Part shown: positions 14,674-60,910 of the stretch, piece after piece
How positions within the stretch are numbered: position 1 is the stretch's first letter
Layout of the letters: every line of letters begins with the position of its first letter
DNA from: Octopus vulgaris
Lineage: Eukaryota
Reading direction: 5' to 3'
DNA: 64,000 bases
Assembly (NCBI GenBank): GCA_951406725.2
Contig: OX597815.1
Span: forward strand, 178,312,001 to 178,376,000
The notes under the pieces: generated by a model
The model's database searches: none
Seen by the model: the letters and a program-made list of their open reading frames with translations, nothing else
Told to the model about the DNA's origin: nothing
Translations under genes and position numbers: made by a program

Positions 14674-15097
14674 GAAAAAAACGAGTCAAAAATAGAAATG
14701 CTAAGATGATTTTATAGTGAATCTTTCAGTACCGGTTTCGGTCATTTTAAGACCATTTCAACTGTAACGATTAAATAATTAAATTTAGAAAAATTAGAAG
14801 AAAAGTTTTTTTAAAAGAATATTTCTGTAGTAGTGTTCAGATATAAGTAGCATTCTGCCTTTCTCTGACTCCCTTGCAGAATGCTACTTATATCTAAACA
14901 CTACTACAGAAATATTCTTTTAAAAAAACTTTTCTTCTAATTTTTCTAAATTTAATTATTTAATCGTTACAGTTGAAAAGGTCTTAAAATGACCGAAACC
15001 GGTACTGAAAGATTCACTATAAAATCATCTTAGCATTTTCTATTTTTGACTTGTTTTTTCATATATATCAACTCGTGTGTTCCTTTCCACCCTTATA
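14674..15097 (+). mobile_element. Fold-back (inverted pLTR-like) hammerhead element in (TA)n
   Basis: Near-perfect ~185-bp inverted arms at 14674-14858 and 14876-15060 with a 17-nt spacer; (TA)n on both sides. Confidence 0.85.
14970..15007 (+). ncRNA. Minimal type I hammerhead ribozyme, U3-A8 variant
   Basis: cag-TTGAAAA-ggtc-ttaaaat-gacc-GAAA-ccgg-TA-ctg: stem I cag/ctg, stem II ggtc/gacc, palindromic stem III ACCGGT. Confidence 0.65.
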
Positions 15098-15164
15098 CAT
15101 ATATATATATATATATATATATATATATATATATATATATATATATATTGGTTGGTTGGTTGGC

Positions 15165-15585
15165 ATCCTTTCTGTCTCGGGAGACAATGGAGTTACGCAT
15201 AAAGTAGTCTAGTCTGGCTTTTATATTTCATGTCCTGATACATTTCCTGCTGTGGCTGTGTAGTCCTATCCTGGACAAACACTCCCTCTGGCAGGTACCG
15301 CAAATGTAGCGAAGACTGTTCCTGGCTGGTTGTAATGCCATAGTTTCTTGTTGACGTCTCATCTTTTCTTTCCATTTCTCCTCTCTCTCCCTGTCACGCC
15401 ATTCTCCACGGTTGCCGGCAACTGCCTCCCAACCGCTAATATTGATGTTGCAGGCCTTCATGTCCCTTTGCAAACATCCTTGTAACGTAAGATCGGTCTA
15501 CCCACAGACCTAGTACCCCTAGCAAGCTCTCCGTAGAGTATGTCCTGCCATCTTTCATACGGCTAACATGCCCAAGCCATCTCAT
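15165..15585 (-). mobile_element. RTE LINE 3' end with C-terminal zinc finger
   Basis: RWLGHVSRMKDGR; RDMKACNINISGWEAVAGNRGEWR; CGTCQRECLSRIGLHSHSRKC. Confidence 0.85.
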
Positions 15586-15719
15586 AAACATATAAAATAA
15601 ACGTAGGCAAAAGAATGAAAAATCGAATAATGATTTTATATATATATATATATATATATATATATATATATATATATATATATATATATATATATATATA
15701 TATATATATATATACATAT

Positions 15720-15990
15720 ATATTCGTGTAAGATCGTCCGTTTTTCCGTCCTTGTTTCGTATACGTTCGATGCTTAGTTTTTCCTTGGGGCTGGCCAGAT
15801 TGGAGCAATCTTAAGATTAATCAGCCGAAACAGCGAGGATGATCAGGTTCTTGACTGAAGATAAAAGGCCTCGAATGACCCGTCCGTGGTTTTTTTGTAT
15901 CGTCTATCTGGATGTTTTGTTGTCCCTTTTTGTATCACCTAGTTGTCCGGATGTTTTGTGTTCTTGTCCCATTTTGTATTTTATTTTATA
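15720..15990. repeat. Dispersed repeat in (TA)n; 3' ~120 bp repeated at 17490-17612
   Basis: TCGAATGACCCGTCCGTGG...CCCATTTTGTATTTTAT occurs at both loci. Confidence 0.7.
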
Positions 15991-15996
15991 TATATA

Positions 15997-56816: not shown

Positions 56817-58081
56817 CAGGTATTGGACAAAATAATGGAAACACCCAGCATCATAGCATCATAATTTTGAAATATCTGTAAAACCGTCAAAAGCTTATTT
56901 ATTTTTATGTTTTTCCATTTATTAGGATTGCTTAATATGTTTTCCTAAAATTGCTGTTTCTTTTCAGATATCATCAGAAAAGTTTTATTAAAATTCATTA
57001 AAATGACAGGTCTATCTGTCTTTCAAAGGGGTCAAATTGTTGGTGCTCGTATGACAGGCGCTAGCGTAACAAAAACAGCCGAAATGTTTGGTGTATGAAG
57101 AAGTACTGACTCGAAAGTAATGACAGCTTTTGAGAAAGAGGGAAGAAAACCTCCTCGTCGAAGCAAAACTCCAGAAGAAAACCAAAACTTTCAGATAGAG
57201 ACCGTCGGACTCTTATGCGAATTGTGAGAAAGGATCACCAAAGTACAGCTCCCAAAATTACTGCAGTGCTTAATGACCACCTTGAGAACGTAGTTTCCAC
57301 AAAAACTGTTCGCTGGGAGCTGCACAAAGCCGGACTTCACGAGAGGGCTGCAATCAGAAAACCACTACTTTCAAAAACAAACATTGCAAGGCGTTTAGAG
57401 TGGGGTAAAGACCTACATAATTGGCCCCTGGAGCAGTGGAAGAATGTTATTTTCTCAGATGAGTCATCCTTTACCTTATTTCCGACCCCCGGCCGAGTAT
57501 ATGTGTGGAGACAGCCAAAAGAATCATTTGACCCAGACTGCCTTCTTAAACATGGAGGGGGATCTGTGATGATCTGGGGAGGCTACATCTTTGAAATCCG
57601 CCGGCCCAATGGTCCCCTTCATGGCAGAATTAATAGTCAAGACTAGTTAAGCATTTTATCTGATCAAATTCATACTATGGTTGTGGAACTGTTTCCAGGG
57701 GAGAAACACAATCTTTCAGTATGATAATGCACCAATTCAGACAGCTAAAGTTATAATTGAATGGCACGAGGAACATTCTAGTGAAGTTGAACATCTTATT
57801 TGGCCATCACAATCCGCAGATCTCAATATTATTGAATGTTTATGGTGCATTTCCGAAAAATAAGTAAGGAGTCGATATCCTCCACTATCATCAGTACAAG
57901 AACTGGAGACTATTTTAGCTGAAGAATGGCAAAAAATTCCTTTGGAAACAATTCAAACTTTGTACGAGTCTATACCTCGTAGAATTCAAGCTGTAATTAC
58001 TGCTAGAGGAGGTCTTACCCCATTTTAAAATATATTTGTTTGAAATTTTAAGGTGTTTCCATTATTTTGTCCAAACCCCTG
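56817..58081 (+). mobile_element. Full-length Tc1-like transposon with a disrupted transposase
   Basis: TIRs CAGG..TTGGACAAAATAATGGAAACACC / GGTGTTTCCATTATTTTGTCCAAACCCCTG. Confidence 0.92.
57003..58028 (+). pseudogene. Tc1 DD34E transposase pseudogene
   Basis: WKNVIFSDES, KHGGGSVMIWG, FQYDNAP, WPSQSADLNIIE; several stops and frameshifts. Confidence 0.9.
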
Positions 58082-59454
58082 AATGTGTGTGTGTGTGTGT
58101 GTGTTTGTATTTACGTGTATGTATCTGTATGTATATAGATCCTGACAGATGTGTATATGTCTGTCATGTATATACCTCATACTTAAAATAGAAACGCTCA
58201 ACGAATAGCAGATTCCATTGAGAAATAACAGGTGTGAGTTAATGAGATATTTTTCGAATCAGTCAGTCAACCTGTCTCTTTCAACAACAGTTTAGCGTTG
58301 GAAGTGACAAACATAATATACACAATATATGCATGACATAATTACCCACGCTGATGCAAGCACATATAGGACCTAAATAGATTTAGGTCCTATACGTGTG
58401 TGGACGTATTTCAACATTGGCGGCTTTCGAATGCTATAACATTTACTTAGCTCCATCAACGTGAGATTTTCCGATCGGTGTGGTAGAAGGATTGTGCAAA
58501 ATGTCTTTTGAACACCCACCGAAACTGGTATGAGTGATGCTGTTAGTGTTCGTCTTGAAGATTTGCGTATCAACAGATGCAGGAAAGCATGCAGTGGGAG
58601 AGGAATTCAGAGAGTGAAGTTCTCGATAGGAACAATTGGGAGGAGTGGTTAGAGTGAGTCTTGGGAGGTGGTGTTCAAGCTTGATTCACTTATGCTATGT
58701 GTGTGTGTGTGTGTGTGTGTGTGTGTGTGTGTGTATTTATATGTATACAAATCTCTCTATCTCGATAGATACATACATACATATATACATACATATATCC
58801 ATACAGACAGACAGAAATACTCACACATATACGTATACATACATACACACACACACACACACACACACACATACACACACACATATATATTTATATATAT
58901 ATGTGTGTGTATATATATATATATATATATATATATATATATATATATATATACATGGCAATAATGTAATTGGTTTCATATTTCGATATTGACATCCGAT
59001 GATATGATCGGTAATCGATATAACCATTGATTATTGAAACGCACATAATCAAATATCTGCTATTGCAATAATTCGTTTTTGTTTTGTTCTTGTAAACTAT
59101 GTTTGTCGCTCGCAGCCCGAGTCCGTATCGATCCTTTCACCGACGGCATTATACTGGAGAGTGAGTTTAACGACAAACAGTTGTTGCTACTGGTTTGGGA
59201 GAGGAACAAAAAGCGTTTTCTTTTTTCCCTCTGGATTGCGTCTGTAGCATGAACAGGAGCTCATTTACTGAGACACTCGAAAACTCTTTACTAACAACTC
59301 TGGCAACCAGCAAATTGGATCGGTCTGTAGTTTTCATCCACCGTAGAGCGCGGGTTTGGTGCCCTACGACTTCCATGTGAATGCCCCCCCCCAATAAAAA
59401 CAGTCTCCAAGAACAGCTATTTCATGACACATAGGAAATGAAAATGGCTGCGAA

Positions 59455-60005
59455 CAACAACAGCAGCAGCAGAAGTAGTAGTAGTAGTAGTAGTAGTAGT
59501 AGTAGTAGCAGCACCACCACCACCACCACCGGCAGTAGTAGTGGTAGTAGTTGTAGTAGTAGTAGTAGTAGTAGTAGTAGTAGTAGTAATAGCTGAACCT
59601 TATTGGTTTCTTTGTAGACTTTTCTCAAACAGCCCTCTACTTCATCCACATTTAACTTCCAAGTGGTTGCCATACAGTGTTGCTCTTGTTGTTGATCGCG
59701 GCGGCGGCGCTGGTGGTAGTGGTTTTGGTGGTGGTGGTGGTGATCGTCGTCGTTATGACGAGGAGGAGGAGGAGGAGGAGGACGACGACGACGACGACGA
59801 CGAAGAAGAAGAAGAAGAAGAAGAAGAAGAAGAAAAGAAGAAGAAGAAGAAGAAGAAGAAGAAGAAGAAGAAAAGAAGAAGAAGAAGAAGAAGAAAAAGA
59901 AGAAGAAGAAGAAGAAGAAGAAGAAGAAGAAGAAGAAGAAGAAGAAGAAGAAGAAGAAGAAGAAGAAGAAGAAGAAGAAGAAGAAGAAGAAGAAGAAGAA
60001 GAAAA
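59455..60005. repeat. Compound trinucleotide tracts (TAG, GGT, GAG, GAC, GAA)
   Basis: Directly visible. Confidence 0.92.
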
Positions 60006-60874
60006 GAAGTAGAGGTTAAGTAAAATTGAAATAAGAAATACAAGTAGAGAAATTAACAGAATTCGCGACTATAACGATGTTGATGATGTTGGTTGGTTGT
60101 CTTTGGTGCTGCCTCTTCTTAATTCTCTAAATATTTGTCCACAACTTAAATTCCAACATTTGGCGATAGCTCTGAAAATAGCCTTTCATGTTTACGATCA
60201 ACAAAGACTGATCAATTCAGCTCCTCCACCCCCTCCCAGATCGAAGATCGAGCTGAAGGTTAATCTTCTGACCGATTAACAGGTAATATACCGGATTCAG
60301 AGGATATATTATTAAAAAGAAATTTCCTAATTTGATGTTGCAGATTACCTATGCAAATATAAAGTTTTGCTTTTTGCTTTTTTTTTTTTTAATCTTTTGT
60401 TCGAAAAAGGCACCTAAATAAATTTTCTTCATACTTCATTAGTTTGATTGTGGGGCAAATTTTTTGGTTAGTAACACGACAATTTTGGTGAGATTTTGAT
60501 AACTTCGGTTACAAAATACACATTTCCCCATTCATTCTTTCCAGATATTCTCAGGCTTCATATATAACGAACAATAATTGTTGTAATGGTGGTTAATTTA
60601 TTAAGTAGACGTACATTGTCGACAATGAAAAATTAATTATACGCTGAGAAGATTGCTTAATATTCCGCCCAGTGTTCATCACACTGTATAAATTATAAAT
60701 TAATTGTCTGTTCCTGTGACATTGATAGCATATTAAGCGCAAAACTATTTTAGCCATCAAGCCATCATTCCTATATGATCCCACGCCTTGCTACTTCACT
60801 TCTCCATCCTTATCGGTAGCCACTACACACATTCTTTCTCTCCTTGTTTCTCTCCTTGTTTTGTTTCTGTGTCC

Positions 60875-60910
60875 CTTTCTGTAGAAGACCGTAGGCTCGA
60901 AACATAAAAG
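60875..60910 (+). ncRNA. Degenerate minimal hammerhead (PLE pLTR remnant)
   Basis: cttt-CTGTAGA-a-gaccgtaggctc-GAAAC-AT-A-aaag; core and stem mutations. Confidence 0.45.

Follow-up and report, generated by a model that had tools for sequence, protein, structure and literature searches.

The 64,000-nt stretch of the Octopus vulgaris genome analysed here (contig OX597815.1, positions 178,312,001 to 178,376,000; hereafter the window) carries six elements with type I hammerhead ribozyme motifs, referred to by their start positions (14674, 18757, 19225, 30062, 39331 and 49001). They belong to two kinds, the pseudo-long terminal repeat (pLTR) ends of Penelope-like elements (PLEs) and the non-LTR retrozymes, described earlier and suggested to be mobilised by PLEs, and as both are known they do not constitute a new kind of element. 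We are confident that the window holds three truncated PLE ends and three non-coding hammerhead tandem repeats, likely inserted by PLE-type enzymes in the manner proposed below. The features are as follows, A and B denoting two alternative 3' end sites.

14674..14858, minus strand: arm of a Neptune-like PLE pLTR in inverted orientation, truncated at its 5' end and terminating at site A; A9 of the hammerhead core changed to U
14876..15097, plus strand: pLTR forming the 3' end of a Neptune-like PLE that is young and autonomous, with a ca. 35-nt tail to site B; 99% match to the pLTRs of locus L156
18757..18945, minus strand: 5'-truncated 3' end of a Hydra-type PLE, ending at site A; GIY-YIG remnant ca. 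1.5 kb upstream in locus L232
19225..19315, minus strand: arm of an old Poseidon-like pLTR in inverted orientation, terminating at site A
19330..19478, plus strand: pLTR of an old Poseidon-like PLE with a ca. 35-nt tail; minimal hammerhead, core 19358; reverse transcriptase (RT) and endonuclease (EN) remnants upstream in locus L227
30062..30224, minus strand: inverted arm of a ca. 440-nt retrozyme, ending at site B, ca. 105-nt tail
30225..30541, plus strand: incomplete unit of the ca. 440-nt retrozyme that runs to site A; hammerhead core at 30370, with cleavage predicted after 30436
39331..46087, minus strand: 560-nt retrozyme in 12.1 head-to-tail copies, each unit with one hammerhead; the array terminates at site A within (TA)n
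46088..46170, plus strand: short arm of the 560-nt unit in inverted orientation, terminating at site B
48997..49441, minus strand: 0.9 unit of a 491-nt retrozyme as an inverted arm that stops at site A; hammerhead core at 49221
49440..50667, plus strand: the 491-nt retrozyme in 2.5 tandem copies that stop at site B within (TA)n; cores 49853 and 50344
60872..60914, plus strand: decayed minimal hammerhead-like motif of a further dispersed family; U replaces A at core position 6

We searched the window with a type I descriptor (a core of either C3-G8 or U3-A8, stems I and II of at least 3 bp each, palindromic stem III); it matched 17 times, against a mean of 0.15 and a maximum of 3 in 100 block-wise dinucleotide shuffles, which rules out a chance origin of the motifs. 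The matches represent four families, i.e., 12 units of the 560-nt array, three units at 49001, and the motifs with cores at 30370 and 14973. Single stem mutations kept the decayed 18757 and 19225 copies of the window from matching the strict descriptor; a slightly looser version recovered other genomic copies of both families. The original prediction of six hammerhead elements thus holds at all six sites, including the self-complementary stem III, for which palindromes were located in each; so does its count of five inverted 5' arms (all elements except 18757) and of five elements flanked by (TA)n (all except 19225, which is instead bracketed by a 12-bp target duplication, 19213-19224/19479-19490). 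An Rfam scan of the window gave no hammerhead among the 150 of 206 matches listed, which were microsatellite-driven microRNA models.

Judged by their sequences, 14674, 18757 and 19225 are 5'-truncated pLTR ends of protein-coding PLEs, the first of the Neptune-like group and the other two probably of the Hydra-type and Poseidon-like groups, respectively. The 14674 element has a minimal U3-A8 hammerhead (core 14973, cut predicted after 15004) and is 99% identical to both pLTRs of L156, which bracket a 330-aa ORF1 (open reading frame 1) and an RT-GIY-YIG frame. Its family is recent: 85 of 85 scored genomic matches are 98-100% identical, 84 of 85 lack stops, many retain a 784-aa frame, and some intact copies lie in full-length tandem and inverted arrays. 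The encoded protein matches RVT_1 (E 1.6e-7) and GIY-YIG (E 2.5e-4, slightly below the curated cut-off), and the element has a pLTR at each end. Because the protein has a CX2-5CxxC linker and a DKG motif we assign the family as Neptune-like, the choice between Neptune and Nematis resting on these motifs. In L156 (3163-6768, minus strand) and L248 the ca. 330-aa ORF1 is separate and upstream of the 784-aa RT-EN frame, which has no nearby start ATG; frameshifting or splicing is possible, and an optional frameshifted ORF1 has been described in PLEs (Craig et al. 2021, PMC8557442).

The 18757 element contains a long-stem-II hammerhead (core 18873), whose stem I closing pair is mutated in the window copy, and the family tail is ca. 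130 nt. The family follows a decayed endonuclease by ca. 1.5 kb in L232, and relatives that are 76-79% identical sit downstream of Hydra-type endonucleases; the EN remnants in L232 and these relatives are Hydra-type (C-terminal EN without CCHH, late CxxC and CxH). For 19225, broken RT and linker-less EN remnants lie on the same strand upstream of the pLTR in L227. A Pfam scan did not recognise the Hydra-like and Poseidon-like proteins. The earlier statement that no protein is encoded remains correct for the window copies, which gave no tblastn match with the Neptune, Hydra-like and Poseidon-like proteins, and fails for three of the six families elsewhere in the genome. Since 14674, 18757 and 19225 lead to PLE coding sequence, the proposal of a single window-wide non-autonomous family is wrong for half the set. 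That all six form one sequence family is very improbable: they have the hammerhead, the inversion and the (TA)n preference in common, and 22-33-nt similarities connect the three retrozymes (E 5e-4 to 0.02), but following three of the families upstream leads to sequence that codes for RT and/or GIY-YIG from different PLE clades, and for 14674 the idea is refuted by intact ORFs between identical pLTRs.

The description as non-autonomous, retrozyme-like elements fits the other three, 39331 (560 nt), 49001 (491 nt) and 30062 (ca. 440 nt), which by sequence are non-coding tandem units, i.e., non-LTR retrozymes, while the remaining elements are ends of autonomous PLEs from three clades. In the window, the hammerhead is present in 12/12 full 560-nt units (first core 39565, predicted cut 39522) and 2/2 full 491-nt units (stem I 8 bp, stem II region 68 nt), and arrays occur genome-wide; the ca. 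440-nt unit exists as an over-unit-length tandem copy in L237 and others. The retrozymes gave no tblastn match with the same three PLE proteins, and their longest stop-free frames are 123 aa (560-nt unit, antisense) and 68 aa (491-nt unit). Searches of the assembly (2.8 Gb, 227 contigs) returned 1537, 1268 and 1537 first-look candidates for the 560-, 491- and ca. 440-nt families, and the best 40 of each, which were scored, reached best-copy identities of 98-100%, 95-100% and 91-95%, respectively. The units are AT-rich, and the 560- and 491-nt monomers fold more stably than shuffles (z -6.4 and -4.3). A 565-nt sister retrozyme, 79% identical to the 560-nt unit, was also recovered (1583 first-look candidates, e.g., L301:5073-6291, minus strand); it is young (97-99%) and has the same A/B ends.

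We mapped the insertions at 89 loci (39 of the 560-, 26 of the 565- and 24 of the 491-nt family), whose common anatomy rules out an assembly artefact. Sixty-one are simple two-armed insertions, 22 are single-armed and six complex. Among the two-armed ones, 53 pair an A end with a B end, one is A+A, none is B+B and seven have an atypical end. Site B lies 100-105 nt 3' of site A, and TA repeats adjoin 151/162 of the 3' ends. The 5' ends are scattered, each arm being variably 5'-truncated and the arms joined 5'-to-5', mostly via short microhomology. The same two-end asymmetry is seen in the ORF-bearing PLE families, and the features of PLE mobilisation (partial tandem, inverted 5'-truncated copy, one-ended tail, microsatellite target) are all found. 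The tail is a known PLE feature (PMC8557442), and two internal RT start sites are its origin according to Frangieh et al. (PMC11167929). Since the A/B ends match such a tail and pair of start sites, we infer that the retrozymes were likely inserted by PLE enzymes; the PLE link of the original prediction, with its inverted and tandem anatomy and retrozyme likeness, gains support from these ends, the tandem units and the pLTR ends. Tails measure 67, ca. 130 and ca. 150 nt (67-155 nt) in three Hydra-type families and ca. 35 nt in the Neptune and Poseidon ones, those of the retrozymes being 100-105 nt; the length of the tail (35 versus 67-155 nt) may serve as a marker of the clade. PLE-type elements are also frequently nested inside each other's flanking (TA)n tracts (L066:~859-990, L301, L156).

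Comparison of the 560- and 565-nt units points to selection on the A-B tail, the region before A and the hammerhead core: identity is 95/103 in the A-B tail, 66/71 in the 71 nt upstream of A and 46/57 in the hammerhead, versus 127/215 in the body, and stem III differs in length while remaining palindromic. Among homologues found by BLAST the core is kept and the stems change compensatorily; in relatives of 18757 the motif could be parsed in 63/80, with a sister subfamily showing two-sided changes in stems I and II. A motif upstream of site A common to the 560- and 491-nt units is not put forward as the recognition signal, being present in unrelated repeats too, and a three-way MAFFT alignment of the retrozymes, which left the hammerheads unaligned, was discarded.

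Because of their hammerhead type and long tails, the retrozymes were probably served by partner enzymes of the Hydra clade: their U-U at the base of stem II and longer stem III (3-4 bp) are as in published Hydra-clade hammerheads, and a Hydra PLE of Octopus bimaculoides that targets (TA)n is among those listed by Craig et al. (PMC8557442). A young, intact Hydra PLE is present in the genome (L362, G000:C3:37230557-37233925, with neighbours L360-L364). Its 717-aa protein has all Hydra motifs (EN without CCHH, late CxxC and CxH, DKT, RWK, CxCX5C linker), 150/150 scored matches are identical across 123 aa, and 30 loci are 99-100% identical at the DNA level. As this element lacks retrozyme sequence, the partner can be named at clade level only. 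The L362 array consists of six 2.59-kb units in two arms, with C instead of U at hammerhead core position 4 and a 67-nt tail. Further Hydra-like PLEs of ca. 900 aa (L298, L299, L301) carry an Asn-rich insert where the CxCX5C linker would be, and have no Pfam match, a hammerhead with a 55-nt stem II, and a ca. 150-nt tail. The partner search covered a handful of PLE families out of >13,000-31,000 first-look candidates. Two PLE fragments were dismissed as partners: the one beside a 560-nt insertion (L230) has its own, different pLTR, and the one beside a ca. 440-nt copy (L236) is a degraded EN for which no connection could be traced.

We propose that a PLE RT-endonuclease, probably of the Hydra clade, would bind the conserved A-B region of the RNA and nick both strands of a (TA)n tract; one nick would prime cDNA from site A, the other from site B. 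Each retrozyme cDNA would traverse 1-12 units, and the two would then join head to head; the hammerhead is likely a weak, dimer-dependent cutter that would yield unit-length RNA. In its most specific form, the young insertions would be snapshots of rolling-circle reverse transcription, in which a dimeric Hydra-clade enzyme, primed from both strands of the (TA)n target, copies one ribozyme-made RNA circle from two fixed positions ca. 100 nt apart on it into two multi-unit cDNAs joined head to head. We put this forward tentatively, as a reading that is slightly less likely to be right than wrong.

The template was approached through unit-to-unit differences (substitutions counted, homopolymer columns masked, 500 permutations). 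In 83 units from 21 loci the differences were 1.31 within an arm, 2.00 between opposite arms and 4.26 between loci; a second set (108 units, 21 loci) gave 1.86, 1.87 and 4.62, and none of the 500 permutations was as low as the observed within-insertion differences. Private variants are common to units across both arms of one insertion, in arms of up to 12 units. As units are closer within an insertion, even across the inversion, than between loci, the data are consistent with both arms stemming from one haplotype or template, and up to 12 single-haplotype units per arm possibly reflect rolling-circle copying, as was proposed earlier for such elements (PMC4209133). Such arms are hard to reconcile with arrays that expand and homogenise in situ by satellite-like unequal exchange after insertion of single or 1.x-unit copies, the model argued for vertebrate retrozymes by Li et al. 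(2026). We regard it as improbable here: both inverted arms are often multi-unit with common private variants, each terminates precisely at A or B and begins at a random 5' position, families that are 98-100% identical contain arrays of 5-12 units, and autonomous 2.6- and 4.4-kb PLEs are likewise found as fresh tandems.

Private variants fixed in every unit of both arms, in arms of up to 12 units, also speak against a second possibility, i.e., that PLE enzymes copy uncut linear read-through transcripts of homogeneous parent arrays, with the hammerhead incidental and no circle involved. By inspection, no two loci have a common ordered pattern of unit-specific variants, and the core is conserved between families with 59% body identity. 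The 5' ends bear on the same question: in the 560-nt family, 6/70 lie between -5 and +7 of the predicted cut, against a local expectation of 0.87 (p 0.0013, in a post hoc window), and in the 565-nt family 2/44 lie near it, both compatible with the exact site (not significant). This excess is suggestive only as support for cleavage, and ends at the cut site would equally be expected from a linear, partly cut multimer. We consider linear copying unlikely, though a more serious contender than unequal exchange, and lean slightly towards a template of hammerhead-processed, ligated circular RNA, monomeric or a small multimer, the alternative being an uncut read-through transcript.

Several observations weigh against copying of a ribozyme-made circle by a Hydra-clade enzyme. 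Variants recur with period 2 or 4 in some arrays (317C in units 3 and 7 of the window array; L058, L082, L057), a pattern not expected from a purely monomeric circle; it could be accounted for by multimeric templates or by subsequent duplication, and it suits both the copying of a multi-unit linear parent and the block duplication of unequal exchange. The cut-site excess is absent in the 491-nt family (1/48), and its window was chosen post hoc. Hammerhead cleavage is dispensable for anole PLE insertion in vitro, hammerhead mutants leaving insertion unchanged as a linear template would have it (PMC11167929), and only 1/9 Xenopus retrozyme dimers was cleaved (Li et al. 2026). The lowest-energy fold of the isolated motifs is not the active hammerhead, the 491-nt core pairing with its own stem III, a prediction in line with the weak, dimer-dependent hammerheads of PLEs. 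No autonomous element sharing retrozyme sequence was found by sensitive BLAST of the monomers against ca. 400 fetched loci; the termini of the Neptune (L156, L230), Hydra-like (L298 group) and young Hydra (L362) elements are unlike the retrozymes, and only sister retrozymes matched. Finally, the loci analysed were the 40 candidates with the highest scores out of >1200 in each family, and old copies are therefore under-represented.

The added value of these elements is mechanistic, with insertion anatomy serving as evidence. So far, the case for retrozymes using PLE enzymes has been built on co-occurrence and on homology to pLTRs; the circular template has been a hypothesis. Here, near-identical recent families combine the two-start-site signature of PLEs on non-coding units with single-template homogeneity, in a genome that also contains intact, 99-100% identical Hydra and Neptune enzymes. 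Partner specificity, circular versus linear template and the role of the hammerhead are now testable with the existing in vitro PLE assay. If true, the rolling-circle snapshots would directly support the model in which retrozymes and PLEs transpose through a circular template, in a genome that holds both the active enzyme and the template. Several repeat families can also now be named, each with >800-2,500 first-look candidates.

Other repeats were seen along the way. The abundant family represented at 60872-60914 has U at core position 6 in most copies, including those at L063, L076, L214 and L232. About 10 more distinct hammerhead-like families appeared incidentally in ca. 270 fetched loci (1.1 Mb of flanks), single matches being partly due to chance perhaps; this number in so little sequence suggests a very large genome-wide hammerhead repertoire. 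Within the window, positions 36553-36664 form a near-perfect 112-nt AT-rich hairpin centred on (TA)n, with spurious microRNA-model matches, and 15860-15990 and 17495-17605 are two copies of another dispersed repeat with (TA)n at its end.

Metazoan non-LTR retrozymes have been described by Cervera & de la Pena (2020, PMC7229834) and by Li, Clavereau & Pollet (2026, 10.64898/2026.07.22.740005), the latter regarding them as non-autonomous PLE derivatives, so that the PLE mobilisation inferred here had already been proposed. Mollusc terms are absent from the accessible text of Li et al., and the giant squid genome paper reports 235 hammerhead matches. Our literature search, which excluded subscription papers, several supplements and Dfam/Repbase (which could list octopus families), returned no account of octopus retrozymes or of A/B-ended, two-armed retrozyme insertions. 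Like other metazoan retrozymes, the octopus units are non-coding, head-to-tail, AT-rich and strongly self-paired, with one type I hammerhead each, and the axolotl HHR_Amex2 hammerhead likewise has U-U at the base of stem II. At 440-565 nt they exceed the typical invertebrate range (150-450 nt) and fall within the 51-972 nt of Li et al. They differ from described metazoan retrozymes in a stem II of up to 68 nt, and in two-armed, A/B-ended (TA)n insertions, which the accessible parts of PMC7229834 and Li et al. do not describe. Homology to pLTRs was reported for 24/57 families by Li et al., whereas no parent pLTR was found for the octopus retrozymes among the families sampled.

The closest parallels are with EN-bearing (EN+) PLEs, whose pLTRs carry hammerheads in Neptune, Poseidon and Hydra (PMC4209133, PMC8557442); these hammerheads have a U3-A8 core, a palindromic stem III and an extra base before stem II, and occur in opposite-strand pairs (PMC4209133). 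The elements at 14674, 19225 and 18757 are ordinary 5'-truncated ends of this type, with minimal or Hydra-type hammerheads, a one-ended tail and a preference for (TA)n. The octopus Hydra-type tails (67-155 nt) are longer than the published 30-40 bp (PMC8557442), and some octopus Hydra-like ORFs, unlike published Hydra PLEs, have the Asn-rich insert instead of the CxCX5C linker. Purified Poseidon_Ac cuts and extends both target strands (Frangieh et al. 2024, PMC11167929), and the octopus insertions resemble its products in having two fixed 3' ends downstream of the hammerhead cut and an AT-rich target. Unlike those of Poseidon_Ac, the octopus ends segregate to opposite arms of one insertion, lie ca. 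100 nt apart and belong to a non-coding RNA.

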